Shown: positions 8,780 to 55,206 of the stretch, in pieces
How the letters are laid out: every line of letters starts with the position of its first letter
Numbering within the stretch: position 1 is the first letter of the stretch
From: a virus
Taxonomy: Duplodnaviria; Caudoviricetes
Strand: one strand, 5' to 3'
Length of the DNA: 63,194 nucleotides
IMG/VR virus record: IMGVR_UViG_3300028194_000318
Location: 1 to 63,194 of that record
Position numbers and translations under genes: made by a program
Notes under the pieces: model-generated
What the model was told of the DNA's origin: nothing
What the model saw: only the letters and a program-made list of their open reading frames with translations
Databases searched by the model: none

Positions 8780-10401
8780 CCTTCACAGCTAGAGCATTCC
8801 AAAATATTTCTTGCAAAATCTTGAGCACTACTTTTACTAAATTGATAGTATAAAGTTTTTACTCCTTCCTCCCAAGCATATAAATACAATTGATTAATCT
8901 GTTTAGCAGATACTGATGGGTCAATCATTAGGTTTAGTGACTGTGACTGATCAATATACTTTTGTCTTTGTGCTGCCTGCAAAACAAGTTCTTTAGGTGT
9001 AATCTCAACAAAAGATTTAAATACAGCTTTGGTAGGAAAGTTTAAGTGTTGGACACTACCATCTTTTTTTAAGATAGACTTCCAGGTCTTATCTGTATTA
9101 AGATCATACTTATCAAGCTCTGCCTCTAGAAAAGGGTTTTTATACACTGTTTTAGATTTAGCAAGATCCTTAATAAAATAATTAGACTTGATAGGCTCTA
9201 TACCCATAGACACAGCACCATGTATAAAAGAACTAGACTTTGTAGGAGCTATAGCCATAAGAGTAGTATTAGCATAACCTTCTCTCAAAGATCTGTATCC
9301 CCATGCACCATGCAACTTTCTTGATGCAATTTCACTTCTATCTTTTAGAGTCCTAAATATTTCTGAGTTAAGTTGTTTAGCTTCAAGTGACTCAAACTCT
9401 ATTAACTTAGATTGAAATAAAGAATGGTATCCTAACACACCTAAGCCAATTGCTCTATGTTTCTCAGCAAAATTAAAGGCTCTCTTCATCCCAGGCATTG
9501 TCTCTGCTTTAATAATAAACTCATCCATTACTGCATTTAAAAAGTATACATATGTTTGTATAGCATCTGTTTCTTTTATTTCATCCCAATGTAAAAGGTT
9601 AATAGATCCTAAACAACAAACAAAAGAGTTATAACTATCTGTTGGTAATTGTATTTCAGAACATAGGTTAGATGCTGTAATATCTAAACCTAGATCTTTA
9701 TATGGAGAATTGTTATTAGAATTATCTTTAAACATTATATAAGGATAACCAAACTCAGATCTACGTTGTATGATTTTAGCCCACACTTTACGTTTTTTTC
9801 TGTCTCCTTCTTTCATTTCTTCCATCCACTTATCTGTGACAGTAATACCATACTGTAGGTTCTGTATAGGATTGCCTTCAGTACCTATGTCTAGAAACTC
9901 TTCTATGTCAGCATGCTCTACAGGTAAGTACACTGCACATGCACCACGTCTTGCCTCAGACTGTTTACAAACATCTACAACTGTATCATACATTCTAGCA
10001 TAATGTATAGGGCCATCAGCATGACCACCTGTAGATATTTCACTTCCTCTAGGTCTAATGTTTCCAAGGTATGCACTTGTTCCTCCACCATACTTAGACA
10101 TCATTCCAATTTCACGGCCTGCATTAAGTATACTATCTAAGTTATCATCTATGTTAGAACCATAACAACTAATAGGTAGTCCTTTCTGCTTGCCAAAGTT
10201 AATCCATACAGGAGTAGACAGAGAGAAAAAACCTCTTGCCATATAATCCTCAAACTTTTCAGCAAAGCCTTTGATGTTTAAATATTTTTCTGCCTTGATG
10301 GCAATGTCTTTAATTCTTTGTTCAGGTGTTTCTGTTATATATCCTCTTGATAAGAAGGTTCTGCTATCATCATTTAGCCAGTAATACTTTTTATATTCCA
10401 T
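8776..10401 (-). CDS. nrdA: Class I ribonucleotide reductase alpha subunit (no ATP cone, class Id-like)
   Basis: Motifs PISCY, SNLCSEI, VCCLGS, APTKSSS, TLYY and C-terminal CSSC. Start chosen at MEYKKYYW. Confidence 0.95.
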   Translation of the reverse strand: MEYKKYYWLNDDSRTFLSRGYITETPEQRIKDIAIKAEKYLNIKGFAEKFEDYMARGFFSLSTPVWINFGKQKGLPISCYGSNIDDNLDSILNAGREIGMMSKYGGGTSAYLGNIRPRGSEISTGGHADGPIHYARMYDTVVDVCKQSEARRGACAVYLPVEHADIEEFLDIGTEGNPIQNLQYGITVTDKWMEEMKEGDRKKRKVWAKIIQRRSEFGYPYIMFKDNSNNNSPYKDLGLDITASNLCSEIQLPTDSYNSFVCCLGSINLLHWDEIKETDAIQTYVYFLNAVMDEFIIKAETMPGMKRAFNFAEKHRAIGLGVLGYHSLFQSKLIEFESLEAKQLNSEIFRTLKDRSEIASRKLHGAWGYRSLREGYANTTLMAIAPTKSSSFIHGAVSMGIEPIKSNYFIKDLAKSKTVYKNPFLEAELDKYDLNTDKTWKSILKKDGSVQHLNFPTKAVFKSFVEITPKELVLQAAQRQKYIDQSQSLNLMIDPSVSAKQINQLYLYAWEEGVKTLYYQFSKSSAQDFARNILECSSCEG

Positions 10402-10411
10402 ATTGGTTTTT

Positions 10412-11389
10412 TTAAAAGAGATCATCTAAGGTGATACTCTTGCTTTTTTTATTATAGTCTACACTCTTTTTGTAAAAGAAGTCTCCCTCTTTTGTTCCAG
10501 TGATTTCTATGTCAAACCACTCTACTGATTTCAATAAATCTTCATTGACATTAAAGATTGGTTTCATACCTATCTTTTCTAATGAATTATTAAATCTATT
10601 TTTTATAAAGTGACGTATAGTTTCTTTAGGTAAGAAACTTAATTCACCTTGCTCAAATATCCAATCAAGGATACCACACTCTGCTTCATATGCTTTTCTA
10701 CATGCAGAATCAATAAGCTCTTCAAACTCTGAGTCAAACCATTCAGGGTTTTCTTTTTTAATAATATTAATTATCTCAGCACCAAAGTTACCGTGTATCT
10801 CTTCCTCTTTACTGGTAGCTTCAACAACGTTAGATATACCTTTGAGTACATTCATTTCTTTGTTAAAACTCATCATAATTAAGAACTGACTAAATAAACT
10901 TACATGCTCTATAAATAAAGAAAATAACAATACAGATTTAGTATACATTTTGTTATCTCTAGATCTAGTACCATCTAGATACTTTCTTAAGTACTTGATT
11001 CTGTTTGCAATAGCAGGTTCTTCTACAACATTTTTAAACTCATCTTCAAGACCAAGGATTCTAAGCAGTCTTGCATAAGCATCTTTGTGTCTTACCTCTG
11101 ACTCTGCAAAGGTAAAGCCTACATCTCCTACCTCAGTGATTGGCATTCTTTTATATAGGTCTCCCCAGAATGTTTTGACATTAACTTCAATCTGAGCAAT
11201 TGCTAGCATTGTTTTCTTTATAACATCTTTCTGGTTAGAGTTTATATTAATTTTAAAATCTTGTATATCTTCAGTAAAATTAAATTCTGTATCAATCCAA
11301 TAAGAATGTCTAATAGCATCTTTATATGCTAATAGTTGTGGGTATTCATATGGCAGGATATTTACTCTAGGTTCAAAGATGTTTTTCAT
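10412..11389 (-). CDS. nrdB: Class I ribonucleotide reductase beta subunit (class Id-like)
   Basis: E68-x3-K72, E98-x2-H101, Y105, FIEH and EEEIH ferritin-like ligands. Confidence 0.95.
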   Translation of the reverse strand: MKNIFEPRVNILPYEYPQLLAYKDAIRHSYWIDTEFNFTEDIQDFKININSNQKDVIKKTMLAIAQIEVNVKTFWGDLYKRMPITEVGDVGFTFAESEVRHKDAYARLLRILGLEDEFKNVVEEPAIANRIKYLRKYLDGTRSRDNKMYTKSVLLFSLFIEHVSLFSQFLIMMSFNKEMNVLKGISNVVEATSKEEEIHGNFGAEIINIIKKENPEWFDSEFEELIDSACRKAYEAECGILDWIFEQGELSFLPKETIRHFIKNRFNNSLEKIGMKPIFNVNEDLLKSVEWFDIEITGTKEGDFFYKKSVDYNKKSKSITLDDLF

Positions 11390-15654: not shown

Positions 15655-18600
15655 ATGGGATCATTATTACAAGATGTAATTGGATTATTTTCCAAAAAGA
15701 AATATGCACCAAAACCATATGATGTAAACAAAGAAGGTAAGGAAGACTACCTAGTACTATCTACAAAACAAGATAGTTCTTTAAACGTTATGGCATATTT
15801 ACCTAAGTTAGATCAAGAGTTAATCTCTATATTTGACTTAGCCACAGCAATCAATGGTGCAGGAAATACTACTTATGATTTTGCTAATGCTGACCTAGGT
15901 GGAAAAACAAACCTAAATCTTACTGGTTCAGATGGTACTGTAGATACAGTAAGTCTTGTAGGAGGAACAGGTGTTACTATTGCAAGCACAGGATCTGATG
16001 TTGAGTTTAGTGTTACAGCAGGAACTTATGTAGAATGTACAGGAACCAACACTGCTAACGCAATACCTATGTGGAACGGGGGTACTTGTTCTCTTGATGA
16101 TAGTAATATTACTTATGATGGCAACAACATGTACATTTTGGAGTCTGGTAAAAAATTCCAAGTAGGTTGGTTAAATATGTCAACTTCAGGAGTTATAGAT
16201 ACATCTAATGGTACAGGAGCAGTTGGTCAAGTTCTTACAGTAGCTGCTAGTGGTCAATTAGAATGGACTACAAACGGTACTGGTTCTATGAGCTCATGGA
16301 ATGTAGGTGGTGAAGGTGGTTTTTCAGTAACAGATGGAGAAAGTGTTTTATTTATAGGAGGAGCAAAGCTTACTTCTATAGCTAACAATGGAAATGAATC
16401 AGTTACATTTAGTCATAATAATACAACTAGAGTTGACACAAACTCAGCAGTATCACCTGCTGCAGGTGGTACATTTACAGTAGTAGATTCTATTACACAA
16501 GATGCTACAGGTCATCCCACGGCAGTTAATGTTAAGACAGTAACTTTACCAAACCCATCTGATGATAATACAACATATGATCTTACAGGTGCAGCAAACG
16601 GTTCTAGCTATGAAGTAAAATTAACAGGATCAGATGCAACAGTAGATACAATATCATTTAATCCAGGAGGAGGTGTAACTCTAACTGATGAAGGAGGTAA
16701 TAATGTTAAAATTAATGTTCCAGAAGGAACGGTTACTAGTGTATCAGGAGGTTTAGGAACAACTGTAACAGGAACTGGAAGTGTAGCTCCAGTAGTGAAT
16801 ATAGATTACGCAGGAAATGATAATGCAATAATTATTGCACCAACAACAACCCCAGTAGCAGATGATTATATATGGTTTAGTGATACTAGTGATAATGGTG
16901 ATATTAAAAAAGGATTAATATCAAACCTTCCAGGAGGAAGTGGTGGAGTAACTCAAATTGTAGCAGGTACTAATGTAAGTATAAGCCCATCAGGTGGTAC
17001 GGGTGTTGTTACTATAAACTCAACTGATAACTTTAGTGGTACAGTTACTTCTGTAACAGGAGGAACAAGTACTTTTATAACTAATACTGTAGTGAACCCT
17101 TCAACTGTTCCAGTACTAACATCTACGTTAAGTGCAACCGGGACAGCAAACGCAACTTCTTTTTTAAGAGGAGACAATGTTTGGGCAACTATTCCAGGTG
17201 GTGATACAACATACAACTTAGGTGTACCAGCAGCTACTACACAAATTAATTTAAATGGGAGTGACGGAACAAATACTCCTGTAACTATAACAGGTGGAAC
17301 TAATGTAACAGTTACCAGAACTTCTGGTACTGAGCTTACAATAGATTCTACTGATCAATATAGTGGTACAGTTACAACTGTTTCTTCTACCACGGCAGGT
17401 GATGCATTAGACGTTGCAGTAACAAATCCTACAACAACTCCTGATTTAGCATTTACTTTTGCAGGTGCTGCAGGAGATTATATTAATGGTCTAGGTAATT
17501 TAGTTACTTTTCCATCAATACCTTCAGTTCCAGCAGACATAGTTAATACAGTAACCACAACAGATGGTAACTTTATTGACCTTACACCAGATGCAGCAGT
17601 AACTGGATCAGTAACAGTAACAGCTGATCTTTCAGCAACAGGTACTGCAGATGCTACTACATATTTAAGGGGTGATAATACTTGGGCTGCTATTCCTGCA
17701 GGGGGTTCAGTAACAAGTGTTGGTGCTACAACAACAGGTGATGCTTTAAATGTAGCTAACTCACCTATAACAAACAATGGTACACTAGCTTTCTCATGGA
17801 CAGGTGATGCTACACAATATATAAATGGAGCGGGTGATAAAGTTTTATTAAGTACATTACCTCAAGGTGCAGTAACAAGTTTGACAACAACTGGAACAAG
17901 TGGAGCATCAACGTTGAATTCAGGAGTTTTAAATATACCTAATTACGCTAATACACAAAATTCTTTAACTACAACAGGAACTGGTGCTGCAACACTTGTT
18001 GGTACTGTTCTAAACATACCTACTCCAGTTATACCATTTACAAGTTTAACTACTACGGGTAGTTCAGGTGCAGCTACATTAAATAGTGGAGTTCTTAATA
18101 TACCTCAGTACGGTGGAGGAAGCACATATGGAGCAGGCCCAGGTTTAATACTTAATACTACACCAACCCCTGATCAATTTGAATTAGATTATGTTGGAAC
18201 AGATAACTACATATACCGTCAGCCTACAAAATCAATTACTTCAGCTGATTTCTTACCATGGACAGATGCTGCTGCAACTCCAAATGTATTTAAAACATCA
18301 CCTGCAGCTATTATTAATGCAGGTCTGTCTTTAACAACTACAGGTTCAAGTGGTGCTGCAACATTAAGTTCATCAGGAGTATTAAATATCCCACAATATT
18401 CTGGAGGAGGTGGTGGTTTTACTAGTTTTGATATAACAGATAATACTACTACACAAACTATAACTAGTGGTTCTACTATAGAATTTACCAAAGCTAATCT
18501 TGCTTCAACTGAAGGTGGTCTTACAATTGCTGTAAGTGCAACTGATAAAGTAACAATAGGTGTAAATGCTTTAGGTACTGATAACTTAATTTTATCTAGA

Positions 18601-19827
18601 CCAACTACTACAGTTCAGAATACTGATTACTTAATGATCAGTGATACTAGTGGTGGAAATCAATTAATAAAGCAACAAATTTATTTAATGCCTGGTTATT
18701 ACAGCGGTTTTATGGCTAGAGGTAATGGTATAACTGCAGGAAGTAGTCTTGTAACAAGTGAACAAGGATTAAATATTGCAGGAGGTACAGGTTTAAGTAC
18801 AATTGCTAGTGAATCAACACCAGCTGGACAGGAAACTCAAAAGAAAATACAAATAAATATAGATGATACTGGTGTAACAGCAGGAGCTTATACTAATGCA
18901 AACATCACAGTAAATGCTCAAGGGCAAATTACAGCAGCAGCTAATGGTTCTGGTGGTGGTGGAACAGTAACTAGTTTAACAACTACTGGAACAACCGGGG
19001 CAGCAACACTAAACTCTGGAGTATTAAATATTCCTCAGTATGGTGGTATAAATGCTGTTAACTTACTATTAGGAACAAGTACTGGAGCTCCTTTGACAAC
19101 TTCTGTAGCTTTTAATGCTTTAAATATTACATCAAATGCATTTGCAGGAGGAACTAAAGTTGGTCATGTACCATCATATGGTTCTGATCCAGGAAACCAA
19201 AAGTTCTATTTAGATGCAACAGGAACCTGGAGTAATCCAAGTTCTGCCGTAGCTCCACAATCAGGTTGTGGTGTAAAAGTTACTTCAGGCACTAATGTAT
19301 TAGATATATATTATGGAGATGGTGTTGCTACTACTAGTAATGTAATTACTTGTGCAACCCTTGGAACAAAAGAAGTTTTTGATATACAAACTGATCATAT
19401 TTTATATAATGATAAAGATGTAGGTGGTACAAACGTTGATGTAGCTAAAAAAATAGTAGTAAAAGATGTATTTGATAGATATGTGTCAAGATCAACTGCA
19501 CCACTTTCAAATGCATGGTGTAGAGTTATTACTGGGCAAACTGGTTTTAATGCTCCTGCTAATCAAGGTAGATCAGCTATAGGAACACTAACAGCTACTT
19601 CAACAGGAGCTAATGGTGTAACTTTATCTTGGACAAAAGCTTTATCTGGTGTAAATTATGCGGTTGTAGTTACTAGTGAAAATATCTCTACTCCAATTTG
19701 GTGTGCTGTAAGAGGAAAGACAACAACAAGTTGTATTATTACTACTAAGAATATGCAGAGTGGTGTTGATGTAAACAGCCAAGAAGTAAATGTAGTAATT
19801 TATGATACATCTTTAGACACAATATAA
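15655..19827 (+). CDS. Long repetitive fibre protein
   Basis: 1390 aa, T/G/S-rich, with several internal repeat families and the shared N-terminal anchor. Confidence 0.85.
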   Translation: MGSLLQDVIGLFSKKKYAPKPYDVNKEGKEDYLVLSTKQDSSLNVMAYLPKLDQELISIFDLATAINGAGNTTYDFANADLGGKTNLNLTGSDGTVDTVSLVGGTGVTIASTGSDVEFSVTAGTYVECTGTNTANAIPMWNGGTCSLDDSNITYDGNNMYILESGKKFQVGWLNMSTSGVIDTSNGTGAVGQVLTVAASGQLEWTTNGTGSMSSWNVGGEGGFSVTDGESVLFIGGAKLTSIANNGNESVTFSHNNTTRVDTNSAVSPAAGGTFTVVDSITQDATGHPTAVNVKTVTLPNPSDDNTTYDLTGAANGSSYEVKLTGSDATVDTISFNPGGGVTLTDEGGNNVKINVPEGTVTSVSGGLGTTVTGTGSVAPVVNIDYAGNDNAIIIAPTTTPVADDYIWFSDTSDNGDIKKGLISNLPGGSGGVTQIVAGTNVSISPSGGTGVVTINSTDNFSGTVTSVTGGTSTFITNTVVNPSTVPVLTSTLSATGTANATSFLRGDNVWATIPGGDTTYNLGVPAATTQINLNGSDGTNTPVTITGGTNVTVTRTSGTELTIDSTDQYSGTVTTVSSTTAGDALDVAVTNPTTTPDLAFTFAGAAGDYINGLGNLVTFPSIPSVPADIVNTVTTTDGNFIDLTPDAAVTGSVTVTADLSATGTADATTYLRGDNTWAAIPAGGSVTSVGATTTGDALNVANSPITNNGTLAFSWTGDATQYINGAGDKVLLSTLPQGAVTSLTTTGTSGASTLNSGVLNIPNYANTQNSLTTTGTGAATLVGTVLNIPTPVIPFTSLTTTGSSGAATLNSGVLNIPQYGGGSTYGAGPGLILNTTPTPDQFELDYVGTDNYIYRQPTKSITSADFLPWTDAAATPNVFKTSPAAIINAGLSLTTTGSSGAATLSSSGVLNIPQYSGGGGGFTSFDITDNTTTQTITSGSTIEFTKANLASTEGGLTIAVSATDKVTIGVNALGTDNLILSRPTTTVQNTDYLMISDTSGGNQLIKQQIYLMPGYYSGFMARGNGITAGSSLVTSEQGLNIAGGTGLSTIASESTPAGQETQKKIQINIDDTGVTAGAYTNANITVNAQGQITAAANGSGGGGTVTSLTTTGTTGAATLNSGVLNIPQYGGINAVNLLLGTSTGAPLTTSVAFNALNITSNAFAGGTKVGHVPSYGSDPGNQKFYLDATGTWSNPSSAVAPQSGCGVKVTSGTNVLDIYYGDGVATTSNVITCATLGTKEVFDIQTDHILYNDKDVGGTNVDVAKKIVVKDVFDRYVSRSTAPLSNAWCRVITGQTGFNAPANQGRSAIGTLTATSTGANGVTLSWTKALSGVNYAVVVTSENISTPIWCAVRGKTTTSCIITTKNMQSGVDVNSQEVNVVIYDTSLDTI
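17878..19041 (+). repeat. Five copies of the SLTTTG(T/S)SGAATLxSGVLNIP coding repeat
   Basis: Copies near 17878, 17962, 18043, 18328 and 18973. A sixth copy is at about 13199 in another gene. Confidence 0.85.
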
Positions 19828-19860: not shown

Positions 19861-22800
19861 ATGAGTGTATATATACAAGAGGTCTTAGGCCTACTAAAGA
19901 GAAACAAAAAGAAACTAATCCTTGATAAACAAAAGGATCATTTTGAATTTGGTAAACTATTTCAAAATAGTTCTTTAAACAATGCTGGTACTTATGGTCC
20001 CAGGATGGAACCATTTGTAGTAAAGTGGGGTGATCTTGTATGTCAAGCAACAGAAAATCTAACAAGAACTCAAATTGGTTCAGGTGTTTTAGGTAGAGTA
20101 CCTGTATATACAAGACCAGAAGGATCATGTACATGGGATACTTTGATGGATTCTATTATTACTCAGAATGCAATTGGTGATACTATTACTATTAACAATG
20201 GTAATTTAATAGTAGACTTACAATTAACAGCTGGTTCAGCAAATATATTAGATCTTACTAATGACCGTGTGGTTATTGTAGGAGTTAATGGTGAGCTTGA
20301 AGATGATGCTAATTTTACAATGGATGGTACAACGTTTACAGCTAATGTAGATGTAGTGCATGGAACTGATGTACCAGCAGGTACTCCAGCTCAAACAACA
20401 AGAATAAACTCTAATCTTAAACTAGAAGGGCCTGTATATGATTCACTTGGAGCATTAGGTGGATTAAATAAAGTGCTTGTAGGTTTAGCAGATGGTAGAG
20501 TAAAGTGGCAAGATGATGATGTGGTTGAAGCATTAACATATGGTTCACTATGGCAAGGAGATGCTACTAATTATAAAGTAGAGTTGCCTATTGGCACTGT
20601 AGATCAGATTCTTATTTCTGATGGAACTACTTTTGCATGGCAAGATAATCCTGCAGCAATTGTAGGAGAAATATGTAGTGTATATAGAATTCCACTATGG
20701 ACCCCTGATTCAAACACTTTAGGATGTTCATTACTTATTCAAGATGGAAACTCAGGTACACCAGCTACTCAAATTACTAATGATGGTAAGCTTAAACAAA
20801 CAAAAGAACTATATTTAGATACTGTAATACAAAATGATGCACTTACACAAGTTTTAGTAAGAGATACAGGTGCTGCTAATGAAGTTAAGTTTAGAGATGC
20901 ATCAACAATAATTCCTCAAAGAGGATTTGATACATTAACAATGACTGCTAATGGTGGAGCAGCCGGTAAATGGACTCAGACTTTTTTAAATGCATATATA
21001 GCTTTAGATTTATCTAAGTTTGCATTTATTGACATTAAAGGGATGGATAACTTAACTGATGGAGAACATGGTGTGGTTATAGCAGAAAATGTTCAGTCAG
21101 GATCTGCACTACCAGATAATGTTATTAGATTTCCTGATGGATGGGGTACTGTGGGTAATTTATTTGATAATACAGTTACATGGACTCCAGGTGTAGATAA
21201 CGGTTACCCAACCTCAAGCCTTTTATTTGGTGAGTCACTAAAACTTAGTTATATTAATTATGATATTCCAGGAGGCAACAATATGTTATACTGGGATGCA
21301 TGTTGTAAGTCAACTTCAGCAAATGCATGTCCTGTAGCTAATAATGGCTCTATTATAATTGATGAAGATACTTCTGTAGGTGGTACAGTAGTAGCAAATG
21401 ATGATGGTTTTGGTGGATATGGTTTAACATATACACTAGTTACTCCAATACCGGCTGGTCAAGGTTCAGTAACTCTTGATGCTGCAACAGGTAATTGGGT
21501 TTATACACCTACTCTTAATTATTTTGGTGTTACCTCTTTTCAATGGAAAGTAAATGATGGTTATTGTGATAGTAATATTGCTACACAAACTATAACCCTA
21601 AGAGCAATAGCAGATCCAGTTATCTGGACATCTACTGATCCGGTTACAGCTAATACATATCCTAATTTAACAGGTGGTGATACTTGGACTTATACATGGA
21701 CAGTAGCAGATCAAGATACACCATGTAATCAATTAAGTTTTACTACACCAAGTTTGCCGTCATGGTTAACTTTTACTAATAATGGAAATTGTACAGGAAC
21801 TTTAAGTGGGACTGTGCCAAGTGCGGGAGGTAGCTTCCCAGTTGTATTAAATGTAACTGACAATGATGGTAGTTCTGACACACAAACTTTTACAATTGGT
21901 GGATTAGGTGTTACAGTAAATACATATTTCCAATACTGGAGTGATACTTCAGGATCTATGGTTAGTACAATTAGAAGAACTGCTAAAATGGCAAGTGTTC
22001 CAGAAGTAATTACTAGAATAACTGATAGTAATACTGGAAGCGGAACAACTACTATAAGGTTTGGAAATACTGTACAAGCAAATTTAATTAGTGGTAGAGT
22101 TAATGCAGCAAATGGTCAAACAGCAAAATCATTTTATTGTGTTGCTGTAGGTATGACTGTTGTAGGTGTTGGAGCTGCAGCTGCTAGAGTTCCAGCAGGA
22201 ACAACTGTAGTATCTTATACAGATGGGGGAATACCTAATCAAGCTACGGCAATATTAAGTAATCCGCATACTCTTAATCAAAATGATATTGTAAAATTTG
22301 ATATAACAGATGCTATGATGGCTGCAGATTATACTAATCCAGCTAACTTTAGAAACTTACTTCAAGATTTCTATCAGACAGGTGGAACTGAAGCAAGTGG
22401 AAATACAAACGCAGCAACAAATGGACGTGATCAATTTAATTCACACGTTTATTGGAGTCATCAGAATTCAGAAAGACAGATAGCATTCTTCTCTGGAGGT
22501 GAAAATGGAACTCCAGCAGATGGAACTAACTATAATACAATTTGGCCAAGTGCTGATAGAGTACAATTCCTTTGTTTTGCTGATGAATCAAGTCAATATA
22601 ATATGGCAGGTACTGGTACTGGTACATGGGCAGATAGGGCTAATAGTACAGTAACTACTATAACAGATGACGTAACAACTGTTAAAGGTTTTATTAGTAA
22701 CATGGTAACGGCAGCAGGTAATAATTCTATATACAGAGGTATATTTTTCCCAGTTGATTATAACACAGGTCCTAACGGAGTACAACTTAATCCTTTATTG

Positions 22801-23022
22801 GCTAATGACGGTTTAATGGCAACTGGTGGTTTAACTGCAAATGGATTTGCATATGCACCACAAGCTTCTGCATACAATACAACAACACAAACGTTGTATC
22901 CAGAGTCATCAGGATCTCCAACTTATTTAACTTATACAGCAGAAGTAGCTGACGGTAATACTAATCAATATTACTATAATCAAGTAAAAGCTGCATTGAA
23001 CAATAGTGGATATACATTATAA
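19861..23022 (+). CDS. Fibre/adhesin with Ig/cadherin-like domains and a vWA-like tip
   Basis: PVANNGSIIIDEDT (Big/cadherin-like), LPSWLTF...LSGTVP (He_PIG-like), and WSDTSGSM...FLCFADES (MIDAS-like). Confidence 0.75.
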   Translation: MSVYIQEVLGLLKRNKKKLILDKQKDHFEFGKLFQNSSLNNAGTYGPRMEPFVVKWGDLVCQATENLTRTQIGSGVLGRVPVYTRPEGSCTWDTLMDSIITQNAIGDTITINNGNLIVDLQLTAGSANILDLTNDRVVIVGVNGELEDDANFTMDGTTFTANVDVVHGTDVPAGTPAQTTRINSNLKLEGPVYDSLGALGGLNKVLVGLADGRVKWQDDDVVEALTYGSLWQGDATNYKVELPIGTVDQILISDGTTFAWQDNPAAIVGEICSVYRIPLWTPDSNTLGCSLLIQDGNSGTPATQITNDGKLKQTKELYLDTVIQNDALTQVLVRDTGAANEVKFRDASTIIPQRGFDTLTMTANGGAAGKWTQTFLNAYIALDLSKFAFIDIKGMDNLTDGEHGVVIAENVQSGSALPDNVIRFPDGWGTVGNLFDNTVTWTPGVDNGYPTSSLLFGESLKLSYINYDIPGGNNMLYWDACCKSTSANACPVANNGSIIIDEDTSVGGTVVANDDGFGGYGLTYTLVTPIPAGQGSVTLDAATGNWVYTPTLNYFGVTSFQWKVNDGYCDSNIATQTITLRAIADPVIWTSTDPVTANTYPNLTGGDTWTYTWTVADQDTPCNQLSFTTPSLPSWLTFTNNGNCTGTLSGTVPSAGGSFPVVLNVTDNDGSSDTQTFTIGGLGVTVNTYFQYWSDTSGSMVSTIRRTAKMASVPEVITRITDSNTGSGTTTIRFGNTVQANLISGRVNAANGQTAKSFYCVAVGMTVVGVGAAAARVPAGTTVVSYTDGGIPNQATAILSNPHTLNQNDIVKFDITDAMMAADYTNPANFRNLLQDFYQTGGTEASGNTNAATNGRDQFNSHVYWSHQNSERQIAFFSGGENGTPADGTNYNTIWPSADRVQFLCFADESSQYNMAGTGTGTWADRANSTVTTITDDVTTVKGFISNMVTAAGNNSIYRGIFFPVDYNTGPNGVQLNPLLANDGLMATGGLTANGFAYAPQASAYNTTTQTLYPESSGSPTYLTYTAEVADGNTNQYYYNQVKAALNNSGYTL

Positions 23023-28282: not shown

Positions 28283-28870
28283 TTATTTTTGTTTTGTCAA
28301 ATGTATGGAATCTTTTTTTAACAATTGATACAATACTGCATTATTATTAACTAAAGTTTCTTTTTCTATGTCAGGTTTTGAACATAATTCCCCTATACTC
28401 TCTAGTAAATCTTTATCTACTTTAAAGTATTGAGCATATGATTCAAAACTTTCATCTGGTGTGAGAAATGTCTGGATATATTCTCCTGCCTTTTCTTTAT
28501 CACCAAAGAAATCTATAATAAGTATCTTAGCATTTAGACTAAGTTGAGAATATTTCCCATTTATAAACCTTTTATGATCAGGTTTAAATGCTTTAGTCAA
28601 ATTAAATATATATATAACTTTATCTTTTGATAGTTCTACAAAGTCATCATACATATCATGATTATCTAAATACTTTTCTGCAAAATCCTTAAAGCCCTTT
28701 GTCTGTTTAGTTTTATATTCTAATATTAATCTGCAATCTTCAACAGAGTAAACACTGTCCCAACAGACATAAGTCTGTAAAGGGACGTATTTAGCTTTTC
28801 TACCTATACCTAATAAAGGATATAGAAATACTTTACTCTTCTGAAAATAGTCAGTATATATTAAACCCAT
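28283..28870 (-). CDS. Conserved-looking phage hypothetical protein
   Basis: Start reassigned to MGLIYTDYF. Contains KSKVFLYPLLG...FINGKYSQLS. Confidence 0.7.
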   Translation of the reverse strand: MGLIYTDYFQKSKVFLYPLLGIGRKAKYVPLQTYVCWDSVYSVEDCRLILEYKTKQTKGFKDFAEKYLDNHDMYDDFVELSKDKVIYIFNLTKAFKPDHKRFINGKYSQLSLNAKILIIDFFGDKEKAGEYIQTFLTPDESFESYAQYFKVDKDLLESIGELCSKPDIEKETLVNNNAVLYQLLKKDSIHLTKQK

Positions 28871-28871
28871 A

Positions 28872-29864
28872 CTATAAGGTAACCTTTTTTGATAAAAATT
28901 CAATAGGCAATGAGTAATTTCTACTTTTATAATGGAATTCAGCAGTTTTAATTGCACCTCCAAGGCCATCAGCCCATCCACCCATAGTTTCTCTAGATAC
29001 ATCAAAGACATATACTTGATCATATGTATCAATTACAACAAACTTAAACATTAATTCATAATCATCAGCATCATCACCCAAGGTATCATACACTAACTTC
29101 ATATAAATAGAAGCTTGTAACCAGTAATTATAAAAGTCTACAGTGTCTTTAAAGTCTGAGACTGTCTTCCCGGTTGTCTTAAGATCACATATGGTTACTT
29201 GCTTTTTATCACTATCAACCTTATAATAATCTATAAATCCATGCAGGCCAAAATCTAAACCTTTAAGTTCAGACTTAAGATACTTCTCACTAAATGTTTC
29301 AATAGGATCTAAATCAAAATCAGTTGTTACTTCACTAAACAATGACATAACATCTTTATTTTCTTTTAGTATTTCTACTCTCTCAGTACATCTCACTAAA
29401 GTATCTTGATCAACTACATCAACATTACTGTTACCAACAAATTTCCAATAAGGTTCATTGTCTTCTGTTCTTATCTTAGCTATTCTTGACTCATCAGCTT
29501 TAAGAGATTGATATAGGTTTAAATTCTTTAGTGAATCTAGTATGATAAAGTCATCACAATCTACTAATGTTTCTGCATCAGTATGAAGAGCCATATCTTT
29601 TAATACCTTTCTGATATTATCACTTGGGCTTTTCCCTGGTACAACATTAAATTTATTATTAACTTCACCTGCCTCAAACAAGAGACAGTGTATTAGTTTA
29701 CCTTCAATTAAATGTTTATCAGTTCTGACCTCACGGTCATGTAATATATAGTCCTTATAGAATAAGGATGGTGAAAATAATAATTTATTCAAAGAAGAGT
29801 AGCTAAAGCAAAAATCTTTATTTGCATAAAACTTCTCTTCTTTTTCTTTATTTGTTTTTATCAT
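28872..29864 (-). CDS. PD-(D/E)XK exonuclease (RecE/DUF3799-like)
   Basis: FSYSSL, GKLIHCLL, GFIDYY...ICDLKTT, YWLQASIY. Confidence 0.85.
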   Translation of the reverse strand: MIKTNKEKEEKFYANKDFCFSYSSLNKLLFSPSLFYKDYILHDREVRTDKHLIEGKLIHCLLFEAGEVNNKFNVVPGKSPSDNIRKVLKDMALHTDAETLVDCDDFIILDSLKNLNLYQSLKADESRIAKIRTEDNEPYWKFVGNSNVDVVDQDTLVRCTERVEILKENKDVMSLFSEVTTDFDLDPIETFSEKYLKSELKGLDFGLHGFIDYYKVDSDKKQVTICDLKTTGKTVSDFKDTVDFYNYWLQASIYMKLVYDTLGDDADDYELMFKFVVIDTYDQVYVFDVSRETMGGWADGLGGAIKTAEFHYKSRNYSLPIEFLSKKVTL

Positions 29865-29988
29865 CTAGTTTATCTAATTTTTGTTGTAGTTTCTGTATCA
29901 TTGCTTTAACACCAGGTGTCTGGTTTATTTTTTCTTTATAGAATAATATAGTTTCTATCAACGCTTTTCTATCATCTTTTTTAGTCAT
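29848..29988 (-). CDS. 46-aa helical peptide (not in ORF track)
   Basis: MTKKDDRKALIETILFYKEKINQTPGVKAMIQKLQQKLDKLDDKNK. Fills the gap and overlaps both neighbours. Confidence 0.55.
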   Translation of the reverse strand: MTKKDDRKALIETILFYKEKINQTPGVKAMIQKLQQKLDKLDDKNK

Positions 29989-31165
29989 TATTAATGTTTT
30001 CTATTAAGTTATCTCTTAGTTGAAGAGCTTCTAAAGATACATGGAACACTGTGTCTTCTCTATCATTACCTACTAGAGGAGACATAATGTGTTTATACAT
30101 TTTCTCTCTTGTATTATCAATAGCAAACTTAGTTAATTTATCATGATGTATCAAATTTTTGATATAATTATTGTAGCTATAGCAGTTGCTTACACTACCA
30201 CCACCTTCAAAGACTTTCATTTTAGATCTCAGTGCTTTAACATTTACTGTATTCCAATTATTAGTGTCTTTTAACCAGTCATATTGCCAGTAATAAATAT
30301 TACTAACTACATCAAAAGAAGCATTAACATTACAATTTGCTAGCATTTCTAAGGCTAAGGATCTATTATCTCTATCTGAACTAGTAATCATTTGTTCAAT
30401 GTTTTCTAATTCAGTATTTTCAATAACAGCTAAGTCTTTATCAATTAAGTTATTTATATCAACATCAAATACTATTTGAGATGAAGTATTAATTATACTA
30501 TGATATTTATCTATGTTCTCTTGTCCTTTAACTAGTATTTCTCTACCACCATTATCTCTCAGTTTATCCCTTTCAGCTTCTATATAATTACCTATAATTC
30601 TATTAGCATCAAGTAAATGTACTGAGTTCCCATGAAAGTAAGATTTACTAATATGTATTCTTGAGTCTTTAGGTATTCCTTCTAACAGTTCCTTACACTT
30701 TAATAAAGAATCTGCTGTTAGAGAGTCAGACTTTTTAAGAAAGCTTAATAGATCATACATACCACTGTAATTATATGAGGGGTACCAATTAGTTTCCATT
30801 AACTTTCTCATTGTATTAATAGATATTACCTCTATGTCAGCTTTATCTATAGATCTAGTTATTTTACAATTAAACTTTTCTTTTAATAGATCAACTTTTT
30901 GTCTAGGTAAATCTAAATGTGGCCATCTGTACAGCTTTTTATCTTGTACATCTATTACTTCTGGTGACGGAGGTAAGATTTCTTTTATTAACTCTTTCTC
31001 TATTTGCCAACTGTTAGTTTGACCAACATATACACCTTCTTCTACTAGAGTAAATGCATTACTCAATAGTTTTGTGGTTACTTTATTATTATTTACTATG
31101 CTATTGTTATTAGTTACAGTAGTTTTTTCATCTACTTGTATACTTAAATTGAATTTTCTAATCAT
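29981..31165 (-). CDS. BRCT-like domain protein, paralog of 31158-32210
   Basis: KKLYRWPHLDLPRQKVDLLKEKFNCKITRSIDKADIEVI, plus the shared helical motif. Confidence 0.6.
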   Translation of the reverse strand: MIRKFNLSIQVDEKTTVTNNNSIVNNNKVTTKLLSNAFTLVEEGVYVGQTNSWQIEKELIKEILPPSPEVIDVQDKKLYRWPHLDLPRQKVDLLKEKFNCKITRSIDKADIEVISINTMRKLMETNWYPSYNYSGMYDLLSFLKKSDSLTADSLLKCKELLEGIPKDSRIHISKSYFHGNSVHLLDANRIIGNYIEAERDKLRDNGGREILVKGQENIDKYHSIINTSSQIVFDVDINNLIDKDLAVIENTELENIEQMITSSDRDNRSLALEMLANCNVNASFDVVSNIYYWQYDWLKDTNNWNTVNVKALRSKMKVFEGGGSVSNCYSYNNYIKNLIHHDKLTKFAIDNTREKMYKHIMSPLVGNDREDTVFHVSLEALQLRDNLIENINND

Positions 31166-32210
31166 CTTGTTTTTTTAAATATTGTTGATATTCTTTCTTT
31201 ACAGCTACTTGAAATGTATAAAGATCTCTATTATGTATGCTTATTTCTCTTCTTACTATAGGTTCTAAATATCTAAAAGTTGTTTTACATAACTTATCAT
31301 TTACTTCTAACCATAGTATCATATCTTGAGCACTTTTTCTTTCAAACTTTTTAAATCCAGAAGCTTCTAACCAATACTGAAGATCTTTATCTCTATTATC
31401 TGCATAGGTTATACTATTACAGTCTTGTGCAAACTGCCATAATAAATGATAGTTTCTTTTATAGTCAATAGTAGGGACAATCTTAAGAGCAATAGCTTTA
31501 TCATCACTATAAGAATTAAGTTGAGTTTTAAGATCTGCTAGCAATTGTTCATCAAGAACCATTTTACTAGCTGAGCTATGTAACACTGTCTCAGGATCAA
31601 CTACACTTAAGTCTGTTGTATCTATAAGATGTGCTAAGTTTAAAGCCATACCTGTAATCATCCACACATCATATACACTACTTTCTATATCTAAATCATA
31701 GTATCTTACTTTGTCAGTCAACTTACCAGTTATTAGAGTTGGAATACCTGAGTTATAAATTGATATTTCCATAGGATGACAAGCTGTGCTTCTACCTTTA
31801 GTAGTTTCATAATTCCATAACTTTGCCATCATAAGAGTACTGGGTATGTTATCTCCATTACTTAACTTCTCATATGGTGCTATTTCATCATGACCTATAA
31901 TTAAGTCTGCTAATTCATAATCATTAGTTACAGTAATACCGTGCTCTTTAAGAGCTGCTTTTAATCTATCTTGTGATACACTACACTTAGGTAATATAAA
32001 AGCTTTCTTTTTAGTTCTAAAAGTTTGGTCATCTTCTGTAGGGACCGTTAATATACTGTGTATTTTTTCATATGTTGTTTGATCTTCAGTGCATAACACT
32101 TCATTTATCTCATTTGAAGAAGAGAGGATACCGTTTATGGTATCACTCTCTAAATCAAAGTAAGATAAAGCAGCAAGATCAAGGTTTTGATATACTGATT
32201 TATTTGCCAT
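31158..32210 (-). CDS. BRCT-like domain protein
   Basis: KKAFILPKCSVSQDRLKAALKEHGITVTNDYELADLIIG. Confidence 0.6.
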   Translation of the reverse strand: MANKSVYQNLDLAALSYFDLESDTINGILSSSNEINEVLCTEDQTTYEKIHSILTVPTEDDQTFRTKKKAFILPKCSVSQDRLKAALKEHGITVTNDYELADLIIGHDEIAPYEKLSNGDNIPSTLMMAKLWNYETTKGRSTACHPMEISIYNSGIPTLITGKLTDKVRYYDLDIESSVYDVWMITGMALNLAHLIDTTDLSVVDPETVLHSSASKMVLDEQLLADLKTQLNSYSDDKAIALKIVPTIDYKRNYHLLWQFAQDCNSITYADNRDKDLQYWLEASGFKKFERKSAQDMILWLEVNDKLCKTTFRYLEPIVRREISIHNRDLYTFQVAVKKEYQQYLKKQDD

Positions 32211-32211
32211 T

Positions 32212-33483
32212 TTATTTCATTGTCATTTTGATAATGTCTGGATTCATCATCATCTTATTAAACTTCTTTTTATTTCCGTTAAAGATTGTTCTCACAATTA
32301 AATACTTAAGATCATTAGTAAAATAATCTTTTGTACAGAGAGAGATTAATCTATCAGTTTGCTTTTGCCCTATAGTATTTTCTTTAGAATATACTACAGA
32401 ATAATTACCAAGTCTAGTTGCTAAGGTTGCAGCAATATCTGCACGGTATGTATCATCTTGTCCAATACAAGATCTTAGTTCACCAAGAATATAAGATTCA
32501 TTATCATGAGTCAATAAATCTTTAGGTGTTACTAGTTTATCAAGTTTATTATTAATAAATGTAGTAAACATAGAAGCAAATTCATCTCCTACACTACCTT
32601 CACCAATCATTTGAATTAATGATAAACTATCTTCAAACTTTTCAAAGCTAGATATAGCATTAAAGAACGTTGTAATTGATCTTGCATTTGTTTCTTGAGT
32701 TACTAACTCTGGGTGAAGTAATAGGAAGTTAATACATCTAGTATCAATTCCTGCACCCTCTGCCCATTGTGCCCATACATTAACATCAAACTTAAGGTTA
32801 GCGGTTACATATCTAGTCTTCTGTGCACTATCTACACTGTTAACCATATAATCTCCATTATCAGGGTTTGCTGTTAAAATTATGTGCCAGTCTTTTGGTA
32901 ATGTCCATGAAATATAAGTCTGACGGTCTATCAGTTCCATAACTGCCTGAATAAATCTTGTATCAGCACGGTTCCAGTCATCTAGTAATAATATACCACC
33001 TTCTTTTGCATCAGCAATCCATTCAGGAGCACAATAAGACATTCTATTTTTACCTGACATTTTATATCCATTCTTTAGGTACTCTTGTACAGCTAGTTCA
33101 TCAACCCACATACCAATTTTCTTAGTAGTTGTTGTATTTAAATTAGCTAAACTATTACCTGCAGCTCTTTGTGCAGCAGTAACCATACTTAGATCATCTA
33201 ATTTTTTAGCCGGTACTGTCTTCTCTTTGTACATTTGAAATTGACGTACAGGGAAACCAACAAGGTCACCTAACTCTTCTATCTGTGCTAAGTTTAGCTT
33301 AACAAACTTTAAATTATTATCCTGAGCAAGCTCTACTATGGTAGATGTCTTACCTATACCTGATTCTCCTACAACTTCTACTGATACAGGACTTTTACCC
33401 TCTGTTTGTAGGAATCTATTATTTTTTATTATGTGATTTACAAATCCTTTTAGTTCTGTAACGTTTAAATTTACTTGTGCCAT
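32212..33483 (-). CDS. MoxR-like AAA+ ATPase
   Basis: Walker A GESGIGKT, Walker B ILLLDDWNRA, and ILTANP. Confidence 0.9.
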   Translation of the reverse strand: MAQVNLNVTELKGFVNHIIKNNRFLQTEGKSPVSVEVVGESGIGKTSTIVELAQDNNLKFVKLNLAQIEELGDLVGFPVRQFQMYKEKTVPAKKLDDLSMVTAAQRAAGNSLANLNTTTTKKIGMWVDELAVQEYLKNGYKMSGKNRMSYCAPEWIADAKEGGILLLDDWNRADTRFIQAVMELIDRQTYISWTLPKDWHIILTANPDNGDYMVNSVDSAQKTRYVTANLKFDVNVWAQWAEGAGIDTRCINFLLLHPELVTQETNARSITTFFNAISSFEKFEDSLSLIQMIGEGSVGDEFASMFTTFINNKLDKLVTPKDLLTHDNESYILGELRSCIGQDDTYRADIAATLATRLGNYSVVYSKENTIGQKQTDRLISLCTKDYFTNDLKYLIVRTIFNGNKKKFNKMMMNPDIIKMTMK

Positions 33484-33490
33484 TGTTTTA

Positions 33491-34654
33491 TTAATTTAAT
33501 TTGATTTTTTGTCCTGGTAATTCATCATTTATTTCTGATACACTGCTGTGAACCCATAATGTGTTCTTAGGACAGTCATCAGGAGAATATGCTTCACCAT
33601 CTGTTAAATATATTAGAGCTGTATAAGCTCCTTTCTTTTCATTGTAATGGTCTATTACAGGTTGGAATGAAGTCCCACCTCTACCATGTATTTCCCAATC
33701 ATGCTTAGGATTGAACTCTTTCACACTATTAAGTTTTGTATCACATTGTGCTACTGTAATTTTATGACCAGTTTTGCACATATGTGCTAACTCATTAAAG
33801 AATTCTTTTAATTCATCATTATTTACAGACCCACTTGTGTCAACACCAACAAGAATATGATTCTTAAACTTAATTTTAAGGCCTGGATTAGCAGCATACC
33901 GTTTGTTATACTTACGTCTGAGCTTCTTAGTATATACTATACTTGAATTACCAACAAACCTTTTTAAATAACCTTTCCAATCAAATTTAGCTGGCTCAAT
34001 ATGAGTAAGTCTATGTATAAGGTCTGCTAATTCACCCGGAATAGTTCCCATTTTCTTGATTGTTTGTTCAGCAGAATCTTTTAACTGATGCTCAATTTGT
34101 TTTTGCATTAGTTTTTTATCTGCTTCAGGCAGTTCATCAAAATCATTCCACGTGCCATGACAGTACTGACTGGTACCATCCATTTGATTCATAAGATTAT
34201 CTAATGAAGGAGATGTTCCATCCTCTTTTGCCTGTTCCAAAAGCTCATAATACTTTTTGGTACCTGCTTTTGTAGGAAGATTTAATTCAGGAAAACTATT
34301 TAATAACAGCCCACCCGTAGGTAGTTTGCTTTCCAGTATGTACTGGTTTATTTCCAAATCTGCAGCTATATTAAATAACTTATGATCTGTATATAGGTCC
34401 CTTAAAATAAGATGTCCAAAAGCTATATGTAATAGCTCATGTTTTATCAAACCAAATCTATGGTCTTCACTGAGATCATTATAGAACTCTGGGTTTATAG
34501 TCAATTGTATACCAATATTGTGTTTACTTACACCTGCAGTGGGAATGTTCTCACTATACTTTTTATTGATACCAATTAAAAAGAGCCCGTAAAAGGGCTC
34601 AGTAAATATTAAACTTTTGGTTGTTCTTGCAACCTGATCTTGTATATTAATCAT
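33491..34654 (-). CDS. HExxH metallopeptidase plus vWA protein (DUF2201-like)
   Basis: KHELLH, NIAADLEIN, VDTSGS, GRGGTSF, YLTDG. Confidence 0.9.
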   Translation of the reverse strand: MINIQDQVARTTKSLIFTEPFYGLFLIGINKKYSENIPTAGVSKHNIGIQLTINPEFYNDLSEDHRFGLIKHELLHIAFGHLILRDLYTDHKLFNIAADLEINQYILESKLPTGGLLLNSFPELNLPTKAGTKKYYELLEQAKEDGTSPSLDNLMNQMDGTSQYCHGTWNDFDELPEADKKLMQKQIEHQLKDSAEQTIKKMGTIPGELADLIHRLTHIEPAKFDWKGYLKRFVGNSSIVYTKKLRRKYNKRYAANPGLKIKFKNHILVGVDTSGSVNNDELKEFFNELAHMCKTGHKITVAQCDTKLNSVKEFNPKHDWEIHGRGGTSFQPVIDHYNEKKGAYTALIYLTDGEAYSPDDCPKNTLWVHSSVSEINDELPGQKIKLN

Positions 34655-34943
34655 CCATTAATTTATCTAAAATTTGTTTATAAATATCATCAGCTTGTTC
34701 CAATGATAAAAATGTATATAATTTTTTACCATTACCTACGGTAAAATCTACTTTTATAGTAGCAGCAAAAGCTTTTCTGTCACTGAACATTAATGCTTTT
34801 AGCATCAATAGATCAAGTATCTTTCTATCTGTATACTGATTGTTGTATATTTCAAATGCAAGTTCTTTGTCTTCTAATGATCCAGAAAACATTTCTTTCA
34901 TTCTAAAGAATTCATCAATTGATATTATCTTCTTTTTTTTCAT
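34647..34943 (-). CDS. Small protein sharing a helical motif with the BRCT-like pair
   Basis: ISIDEFFRMKEMFSGSLEDKELAFEIYNN. Confidence 0.65.
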   Translation of the reverse strand: MKKKKIISIDEFFRMKEMFSGSLEDKELAFEIYNNQYTDRKILDLLMLKALMFSDRKAFAATIKVDFTVGNGKKLYTFLSLEQADDIYKQILDKLMDD

Positions 34944-35317: not shown

Positions 35318-35641
35318 TTATTTATCTTTTACAAATTGACCATTAATCATTTTACCTGTACGTTTTGAGATTACATTATAAGCTGATTCAAGACAGTATT
35401 CTAAAGATACATTTTGCATCTTAGCCTGAATAATCAAGGTGACCATTATATCACCTATAGCATCAATGGTCTCTGCATGGTCATTACTATTGATAGCTTG
35501 TATAAGCTCAGTTGTTTCTTCTAGTGTCTTCAGTGCTTGAGCCATTGGTGAAGCTACTTTATCTGGTCCTTGAATTTTATCAAGGATACCTTTTTCTTCT
35601 GCCCAGCTTTCAACTGCACATTCTAATTCAAAATAATCCAT
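35318..35641 (-). CDS. MazG-like nucleotide pyrophosphohydrolase
   Basis: KTLEETTEL...DAIGDIMVTL...AYNVISKRTGKMINGQFVK. Confidence 0.85.
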   Translation of the reverse strand: MDYFELECAVESWAEEKGILDKIQGPDKVASPMAQALKTLEETTELIQAINSNDHAETIDAIGDIMVTLIIQAKMQNVSLEYCLESAYNVISKRTGKMINGQFVKDK

Positions 35642-36636: not shown

Positions 36637-36670
36637 AAAAAGAAATGGGCCCAGCATTATACTGAGCCCA
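36637..36670 (-). terminator. Intrinsic terminator
   Basis: TGGGCTCAG/CTGGGCCCA stem followed by TTTCTTTT. Confidence 0.7.
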
Positions 36671-36688
36671 CTCTTTTCAAATTACTAA

Positions 36689-54924: not shown

Positions 54925-55206
54925 ATGAGAAATCAAACAGTAGTACCAGTAGGAATGAAATTGTTAATTAAAGAAATAAAACCAGAGACTAAAACTGCAT
55001 CAGGTTTATATTTACCTGAACAATTTTCCAAGCAAACTTTTCAAGGTACAGTTGTAGGAAGAGGAGATGAAGTAACGTCAATACAAATTGGTGATACAGT
55101 GCAATATGCAGATCATGCTATGCCAACACCAATGCAACATAATGGGGAAGAACACTTATTATTGCAATTAGGAGATGTCTATGCAATTATAAGATATGAT
55201 GAGTAG
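54925..55206 (+). CDS. groES: Co-chaperonin GroES/Cpn10
   Basis: PVGMKLLIK, mobile loop ETKTASGLYLP, GTVVGRG, IGDTV. Confidence 0.9.
   Translation: MRNQTVVPVGMKLLIKEIKPETKTASGLYLPEQFSKQTFQGTVVGRGDEVTSIQIGDTVQYADHAMPTPMQHNGEEHLLLQLGDVYAIIRYDE

Follow-up and report, generated by a model that had tools for sequence, protein, structure and literature searches.

Five consecutive genes on the minus strand of a viral DNA record of 63,194 nucleotides (nt) (IMG/VR record IMGVR_UViG_3300028194_000318; G+C ~31%), which was analysed at its full length and is called the window below, encode a fused zincin-vWA protein and an AAA+ ATPase, together with three further proteins of 98, 350 and 394 amino acids (aa) that belong to one family and are referred to here as the partners. 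The large terminase of the window is closest to those of Crassvirales and Flavobacterium phages (~25% identity) and the close relatives are uncultured marine contigs of ~113-125 kb; the source phage is an uncultured marine crAss-like phage. Its replication/recombination module occupies the minus strand from 25.3 to 43.9 kb and contains genes for DNA helicases, Sak4, a primase, MazG, RusA, the five-gene cassette, a PD-(D/E)XK exonuclease, a conserved protein of no assigned function and a DNA polymerase. The cassette lies between the primase/RusA genes and the exonuclease/DNA polymerase genes, and the terminase and portal genes are far off at 55-60 kb. An earlier reading of this DNA, made from the letters and a list of open reading frames (ORFs) and called the sequence-only reading here, had described the five genes as an operon in the order small protein, zincin-vWA protein, ATPase and two larger proteins. 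All five minus-strand ORFs (98, 387, 423, 350 and 394 aa) were recovered where it had placed them, together with every peptide that it had quoted. The features of the cassette, with positions counted from the first letter of the window, are as follows:

34647..34943, minus strand: 98-aa partner, a stand-alone ARM/HEAT-like domain; motif helices at residues 6-35, nt 34839-34928
33491..34654, minus strand: zincin (DUF2201_N) and vWA (DUF2201) protein, 387 aa; HELLH at nt 34427-34441, MIDAS DTSGS at nt 33827-33841
32212..33483, minus strand: MoxR/midasin-class AAA+ ATPase, 423 aa; Walker A at nt 33346-33369, Walker B at nt 32977-32994
33091-33252, minus strand: insert of the ATPase, ~residues 78-131, from the alignment to N4 gp24 and S-TIM5
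31158..32210, minus strand: 350-aa partner, with an N-terminal domain, a BRCT-like domain with an insertion and an ARM/HEAT-like C-terminal domain
31860-32027, minus strand: first half of the BRCT-like domain of the 350-aa partner, residues 62-117
31161-31562, minus strand: C-terminal domain of the 350-aa partner, residues 217-350
29981..31165, minus strand: 394-aa partner, with the architecture of the 350-aa protein
30776-30952, minus strand: first half of the BRCT-like domain of the 394-aa partner, residues 72-130
29984-30430, minus strand: C-terminal domain of the 394-aa partner, residues 246-394
36643..36673, minus strand: terminator-like hairpin of 14 pairs upstream of the primase gene, a probable transcription-unit boundary

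The 98-aa and vWA genes overlap by 8 nt, ATGATTAA (34647-34654), the vWA and ATPase genes are separated by 7 nt and the ATPase and 350-aa genes by 1 nt, and the 350-aa and 394-aa genes overlap by 8 nt, ATGATTAG (31158-31165). The two overlaps are nearly identical, so that the 98-aa and 350-aa proteins both end in Asp-Asp and the vWA and 394-aa proteins both start with Met-Ile. The C-termini of the three partners read MDD, QDD and NND. Thirteen terminator-like sites were observed against 2.8 expected, the hairpin at 36643-36673 being the strongest, and none was found on the minus strand between the 394-aa and exonuclease genes. Since the only strong hairpin stands upstream of the primase gene and none follows the 394-aa gene, the cassette is best seen as part of a primase-to-polymerase unit; the placement of the hairpin gave no sign of the separate five-gene operon that had been proposed, and the operon of the sequence-only reading gives way to a cassette that forms one section of a longer transcription unit of the replication module. 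One marine RNA library contains short contigs that match the window exactly over stretches of the genes for the exonuclease, the ATPase, the vWA protein and RusA/MazG, other parts being uncovered, a pattern that does not demonstrate transcription.

The zincin-vWA protein and the ATPase

The 387-aa protein matched Pfam DUF2201_N (PF13203; 68.6 bits against a cut-off of 23.2, E value 8.6e-19) and DUF2201 (PF09967; 56.8 bits against a cut-off of 26.4, E value 3.2e-15), as well as PHROG 1314 (E value 3.4e-63). In an alignment of 25 relatives, which covers two sublineages that are mutually only 49-56% identical, the zincin residues H72, E73, H76, H81 and E101 and the MIDAS residues D272, S274, S276, T328 and D352 are invariant in all 25 sequences, and the zinc and MIDAS sites are therefore both under selection. 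Judged by its sequence, the protein is a DUF2201-type zincin-vWA with both sites intact. A profile search of PDB sequences returned no solved relative. PHROG 1314 carries the label 'HNH endonuclease', as do many GenBank phage records (e.g. those of 121Q and of Vibrio and Pseudomonas phages); given that the DUF2201_N and DUF2201 families are present and an HNH match is absent here, this label is likely to be a propagated mis-annotation.

The 423-aa protein matched PHROG 1297, annotated as 'ATPase' (E value 2.4e-34), and stayed below the Pfam cut-offs for AAA_5 (21.1 bits, cut-off 22) and AAA_3 (16.2 bits, cut-off 27), with midasin AAA modules as its closest PDB sequences (E value 2e-8). Its Walker A motif, GESGIGKT, is canonical, its Walker B motif reads ILLLDD, with the two Asp residues at D168 and D169, and the sensor-1 Asn (N206) and R224 are conserved. 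The DD pair of Walker B is present in 6/6 aligned members of the clade, compared with DE in five other phage homologues (N4, S-TIM5, AR9, 121Q and nACB1) and EE in that of the Moorella phage. Relative to N4 gp24 and S-TIM5, an insert of ~54-65 aa lies between GFPVRQFQM and MSYCAPEW, a site at which the ATPase of a sister lineage is ~35 residues shorter; judged by position, it is probably a helix-2 insert region. The two peculiarities that had been pointed out in the ATPase, an insert of ~60 aa after Walker A and the DD Walker B, are thus both seen in alignments. The name MoxR that had been given to it is approximate: the gene adjoins a vWA gene, but the protein scores below the AAA_3 and AAA_5 cut-offs and midasin modules are nearest, and it is, on these comparisons, of the MoxR/midasin class, yet not a certified MoxR member.

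The ATPase gene varies in form among the loci of the survey described below. In a locus of the sister lineage (L086) it is found in two ORFs (5773-6198 and 7237-7989) with ~1 kb of other sequence between them, and in L085 and L086 the DNA polymerase is in three pieces; these split genes suggest introns, inteins or homing-endonuclease insertions. Some distant relatives (L131:5995-7476; L134-L136, e.g. L135:5920-7506) have ATPase ORFs of ~493-528 aa, compared with ~395-423 aa, and may carry extra modules in the variable insert or at the termini.

The partner family and its linkage to the pair

Pairwise BLASTP among the three partners gave nothing significant (E values 0.056 to 16), and a direct hhalign comparison of the family alignments of the 350-aa protein (A1) and the 394-aa protein (A2) gave P 0.066, over the BRCT-like segment only. 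A HMMER search of 1.84 billion representatives with A1 returned 176 matches, the weaker of which are proteins of 347-399 aa, and several of these also score against A2. A bridging alignment (A3) of 31 such weaker A1-matching proteins aligned by hhalign with A2 over 302 columns (probability 98.7%, E value 2.3e-16) and with A1 over 338 columns (probability 99.9%, E value 2.7e-34), of which only the A3-A2 result is independent, as A3 was selected through A1 matches. The A3-A2 match shows that distant paralogy joins the 350-aa protein to the 394-aa protein along almost the full length of both. An alignment of 34 sequences of the 98-aa family (A4) matched A3 at the motif region (E value 3.1e-5, probability 73%) and aligned to the same motif place in A2 (E value 0.014) and A1 (E value 0.021); the small upstream proteins of the sister lineage (148-150 aa) start with the motif and match A3 at 220-277 (E values 3.5e-7 to 4.1e-5). 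By these matches, the 98-aa protein consists of the C-terminal domain of the large partners, standing alone. The homology of the three partners, which had been put forward on the strength of a shared helical motif, is established at profile level through the bridging family; the motif itself is common to all three, but it is not free-standing and corresponds to the first two helices of an ARM/HEAT-like domain.

No meaningful match of the partners was obtained in Pfam, PHROG, NCBIfam or PADLOC, and PADLOC/NCBIfam matches such as BrxF (0.0089) and SprT (0.041) were dismissed as noise-level. Among 50,697 phage records, tblastn detected no counterpart of the 350-aa protein, the 394-aa protein or either of two bridging proteins, and blastn detected none of the whole cassette; searches of PDB sequences with profiles A1, A2, A3, A5 and A7, the last being that of the vWA protein, gave nothing meaningful. 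Fused forms of the family with 700-2000 aa were absent from 7160 candidates, which counts as weak evidence, and both the partner family and DUF2201 were absent from the five gut Crassvirales records searched (0/5), the partner search having no positive control genome there.

AlphaFold2 models of the 350-aa protein (predicted local distance difference test, pLDDT, 96.0; predicted template modelling score, pTM, 0.89) and of the 394-aa protein (pLDDT 85.9) were compared with 48,161 PDB representatives by VIA-align, a fold search that is independent of Foldseek and in which the noise line lies at ~Z 8 and helical matches under ~Z 13 can be generic. BRCT domains head both lists (root-mean-square deviation 2.8-4.5), at Z 5.3-6.2 with 70-78 residues aligned within residues ~62-216 of the 350-aa model and at Z 4.6-6.3 with 67-84 residues aligned within residues ~72-245 of the 394-aa model, and the matches include PARP1, PARP4, XRCC1, TopBP1, REV1, ECT2, MCPH1 and Dbf4. 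ARM/HEAT proteins (STAG1, Pds5B, beta-catenin, importin-beta and AP complexes; ~65-75 residues) matched residues 217-292 of the 350-aa model at Z 5.2-6.8 and residues 249-324 of the 394-aa model at ~Z 5. Foldseek gave a weak match to the BRCT domain of PARP1 (probability 0.72, E value 0.027), and a search of the ESM Atlas gave no usable match. The whole-chain Foldseek rows for RFC subunits and ketol-acid reductoisomerases were set aside as noise (TM 0.1-0.14).

At the level of Pfam profiles, the window's own partners gave no BRCT match at E<=0.1. Among their relatives, BRCT is the most frequent Pfam family, with matches to BRCT in 7/98 and to BRCT_2 in 3/98, all of them sub-threshold. The best match, in relative P0360 (E value 8.5e-5, 23.2 bits against a cut-off of 27.3), covers residues 56-103 and positions 4-53 of the 86 in the profile, and that in relative P0380 covers residues 62-113; the likeness in sequence does not extend past the domain's first half, at profile positions 4-54. 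The BRCT-like fold is split by an insertion of 60-80 residues in its second half. The phosphate-binding motif of BRCT domains is Ser/Thr-Gly, and a conserved Pro-x-Cys/Leu stands where it is expected in the BRCT-like alignments, as compared by eye. Sub-threshold matches to Pfam DNA_alkylation (AlkD HEAT-like) were obtained for 9/40 members. The resemblance to BRCT is argued to be real because two models from different alignments agree, because BRCT is the most frequent Pfam family and because the best matches fall on the very segment that had been flagged. The presence of a BRCT-like domain in the two large partners, as claimed previously, is supported by Z 5.3-6.3 in two independent models and by the sub-threshold Pfam matches of the relatives; on the models, the domain is 'BRCT-like' and not a certified BRCT.

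A Foldseek search of viral models (BFVD) returned four full-length look-alikes (E values 2.6e-7 to 3.2e-6), A0A8S5QMV2, A0A6J5LXR8, A0A8S5TKB2 and A0A8S5TL70. Two of the four come from a single 'Podoviridae sp.' genome, and a crAss-like virus and an uncultured caudovirus account for one each. The combination of BRCT-like and ARM/HEAT-like domains is a new domain architecture for which Pfam, PHROG and NCBIfam hold no model. Conservation along the 394-aa family is mosaic, with a mean identity of 0.60 in the BRCT-like half, 0.71 in the motif helices, 0.33 in the N-terminus and 0.32 in the insert, as expected if the contacts of a subunit are fixed and its specificity can change.

Linkage was surveyed in 126 related viral loci, 80 of them close and 46 more distant, the latter being fetched with the ATPase of the sister lineage and carrying ATPases 52-100% identical to that query. 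As far as their DNA extends, all 80 close relatives retain the order primase-(MazG)-RusA-98-vWA-ATPase-350-394-exonuclease-unknown-polymerase, the vWA and ATPase genes are adjacent in all 80, as they are in the distant loci that hold both genes, and a 98-aa homologue was found in 75/80 at E 1e-5. The identity to the window in these close loci is 87-100% for the ATPase, 79-98% for the vWA protein and 74-99% for the DNA polymerase, and 48-90% for the 350-aa, 31-95% for the 394-aa and 32-95% for the 98-aa protein; by this comparison, the partners evolve much faster than the core pair.

The copy number and position of the partners vary among the distant loci: some have three members, some two and some a single downstream member of 354-498 aa, and others have an additional short copy (157 aa) or a single full-length member that precedes the vWA gene. 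A family member lies directly downstream of the ATPase gene (E value 2.9e-15 or better) in 35 of the 41 readable distant loci, readable meaning that at least 1.1 kb of DNA follows the ATPase gene. As for the other six, L114, L116 and L117 have a partner directly upstream of the vWA gene, and L113, L138 and L144 have no downstream partner and an upstream side that falls outside the locus. No locus among the 126 that is readable on both sides is without the partner family. In L137 the order vWA-ATPase-partner is followed by genes for a helicase, Sak4 and a primase, and in L117 the order partner-vWA-ATPase stands among quite different neighbours, indicating that the trio survives rearrangement. 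The sequence-only reading had staked its proposal on the partners being linked to the ATPase-vWA pair in other genomes, and the survey found them so.

Elsewhere in the window, the MazG-like pyrophosphatase gene between primase and RusA (35318-35641, minus strand) has a counterpart in only 1/80 close relatives (L009; blastp, E<=1e-5), suggesting that it is a variable insertion in the module. The conserved gene of no assigned function between exonuclease and polymerase (28283-29032, minus strand) was found in 64/80 close loci and in most distant ones; counted from the TTG start that is listed, it has 161 nt in common with the exonuclease gene, and the true start is therefore probably further in. 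Three giant plus-strand ORFs at 847-6684 (1945 aa), 15655-19827 (1390 aa) and 19861-23022 (1053 aa) gave no PHROG match at E<=1e-5; since the terminase and portal (55196-60136) are crAss-like, these ORFs may encode the large proteins typical of such phages, either of the virion or RNA-polymerase-like. Genes for the large and small subunits of ribonucleotide reductase (8776-11389) are encoded on the minus strand, within a block whose other genes run on the plus strand.

Proposed function and its alternatives

On balance we consider it probable, though not strongly so, that the cassette encodes an ATP-driven remodelling and proteolysis machine and that the partners, one to three in number and all of one so far undescribed family, are dedicated subunits of it. 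By analogy with related machines, the AAA+ ring would power unfolding or extraction, the MIDAS site of the vWA domain would grip an acidic residue of a protein ligand, and the fused zincin could also cut that ligand. The constant C-terminal domain of the partners would meet the machine as a docking module, a point that is held less securely than the existence of dedicated subunits, and the choice of target would fall to the BRCT-like domain and to the quickly evolving N-terminus and insert. The target may be a DNA-associated or host-defence protein, which would be eliminated or cleaved at an early stage of infection. In the transposon screen HIDEN-SEQ, the MoxR ATPase bas54_0063 of phage Bas54 was specifically required against the predicted defence system DS-28 (Nat Microbiol 2026, PMC13716836), and a second required gene in that report, bas54_0140, is unannotated. 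The anti-defence phenotype of bas54_0063, the replication-module position of the cassette and the early promoter annotated for the AR9 pair favour an early, non-structural role and make a DNA-associated or host-defence protein the most likely target.

Several observations weigh against this proposal. The small paralogue was detectable upstream in only 18/38 readable distant loci, and much of the linkage may reflect shared ancestry, as all partner loci belong to one broad marine phage group with a largely syntenic replication module. Within 4-6 kb of the pair, no member of the partner family is detectable in 8/8 other phage lineages (N4, S-TIM5, Vibrio 1.025.O, Moorella MTATph1, AR9, 121Q, TDDLMA and nACB1), which suggests that the pair works without partners elsewhere. 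The BRCT and ARM matches fall under the VIA-align noise line of Z 8, and Foldseek found nothing at E<=1e-3 in the PDB for either the 350-aa or the 394-aa model. The DD Walker B, to judge from its residues, may make ATP hydrolysis slow or altered. Finally, bas54_0063 comes from an E. coli phage (PMC13716836) and is connected with the family of the window ATPase only via the homologues of N4 gp24 in Vequintavirinae phages (27% identity, E value 1e-21).

A more specific proposal, which we put forward tentatively and regard as unlikely, is that the cassette would be a split viral counterpart of midasin or of Cdc48-SPRTN/Wss1, in which the AAA+ ring and the MIDAS-zincin subunit recognise the constant ARM/HEAT-like domain of one to three interchangeable partners, whose BRCT-like and hypervariable surfaces bring DNA-bound or fork-associated host proteins, e.g. 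defence sensors, for extraction and cutting.

The partners might instead be clients, that is, pro-proteins or assembly intermediates that are remodelled and cut, for example for the activation of a BRCT-bearing replication or takeover factor. The linkage evidence is equally compatible with this, the shared domain could serve as a degron-like recognition module, and Kaur et al. describe MoxR-vWA systems as chaperones that serve dedicated client complexes (eLife 2020, PMC7159879); however, a set of receptors seems the better description of three diverged proteins that keep one domain constant and vary in their surfaces, no conserved cleavage motif was seen, though none was sought, and many lineages have a single partner, so that we regard the client role as unlikely. 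It is quite doubtful that the partners are ordinary replication or repair accessory proteins that stand near the pair only through the syntenic replication module. In favour of this view, BRCT domains are typical of ligases, clamp loaders and repair scaffolds, the cassette stands between primase/RusA and exonuclease/polymerase in a conserved primase-to-polymerase order, and the pair occurs without partners in all eight other lineages. Against it, members of one family lie on either side of the pair in reading frames that overlap or abut, the trio stays intact when the module is rearranged (L117 and L137), and the partner shifts from downstream to upstream of the pair yet stays adjacent (L114 and L117). 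It is highly improbable that the machine is a virion-assembly chaperone or protease with the partners as assembly scaffolds, as proposed for the pair of group 2.2 jumbo phages (PMC7824862) and in keeping with the MoxR-vWA tail system shown for an archaeal virus and with the 121Q pair that adjoins virion structural genes, because the cassette sits in the replication module far from terminase and portal at 55-60 kb, the annotation of AR9 places an early promoter ahead of its pair, and a BRCT-like domain would be unexpected in a capsid or tail scaffold.

Comparison with known systems

The ATPase-vWA pair is already known from N4 (gp24/gp25) and jumbo phages, and the partner family appears to be undescribed; neither the family nor its link to the pair was found in the literature searched, with subscription journals and supplements outside the search. 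The genes for gp24 and gp25 of coliphage N4 are core genes of Schitoviridae, and the two proteins are listed among 17 conserved core proteins of N4-like phages (PMC7650795); by tblastn, 347 phage records matched the vWA protein and 832 matched N4 gp24. The pairs of N4 (gp24/gp25), AR9 (g028/g029), 121Q, S-TIM5 and Moorella MTATph1 consist of the same two families (PHROG 1297 and PHROG 1314, the latter with DUF2201_N and DUF2201) encoded by adjacent genes. N4-type pairs stand in an early/middle or replication-module position, as the cassette stands in a replication module here; an annotated early promoter precedes the AR9 pair, and the 121Q pair lies beside virion structural genes. The gene order is ATPase-vWA in N4, AR9, 121Q, S-TIM5 and Moorella, in contrast to vWA-ATPase in the window, and the N4-type homologues share only 18-23% (ATPase) and 23-29% (vWA protein) identity with the window proteins. 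Their Walker B has DE or EE where DD is found here, and no member of the partner family was found in any of the eight loci examined.

The pair occurs in hundreds of phages and belongs to the core genes of N4-like phages. A clade with an ever-present, recognisable and fast-evolving partner family, composed of constant and variable domains, one of them BRCT-like, provides an experimental handle on what the pair acts on, a question made timely by the requirement for a phage MoxR ATPase in overcoming a bacterial defence system (PMC13716836).

The group 2.2 jumbo phages have the same peptidase-vWA fusion beside a MoxR ATPase, a pair for which a role in virion assembly was proposed (Iyer et al. 2021, PMC7824862); the passage that describes it names no third component, whereas the pair here has partners, and the cassette here stands in a replication context. 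Among the MoxR-vWA couplings listed by Kaur et al. are midasin, RavA-ViaA and the tail system of an archaeal virus (PMC7159879). The VMAP ternary systems of the same authors (Kaur et al. 2020, PMC7159879) combine MoxR and vWA proteins with a third protein of variable modules, and peptidases are sometimes fused to the vWA component there, as they are here. The comparison is one of three-part logic: the VMAP systems belong to bacteria, with an enrichment in multicellular prokaryotes, VMAP takes the place of the third component, and the term 'BRCT' is absent from the main text of the paper (PMC7159879).

The BRCT proteins PARP1, XRCC1, TopBP1, REV1, ECT2, MCPH1 and Dbf4 are the top fold matches of the two large partners, whose family matches BRCT by sequence in the first half of the domain only. 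Midasin (Rea1), whose AAA modules are the nearest solved sequences to the ATPase (E value 2e-8), combines an AAA_5-type motor with a MIDAS domain, as does the cassette, and the midasin MIDAS binds a shared domain of two different adaptors (Ytm1 and Rsa4). Where separate genes are found here, midasin is a single very large eukaryotic protein that lacks a peptidase; UBL domains are used by its adaptors, and the domain shared by the partners is ARM/HEAT-like. If the cassette were indeed a split counterpart of midasin, it would provide the first mechanism and the first targeting subunits for a pair of the N4 gp24/gp25 type.

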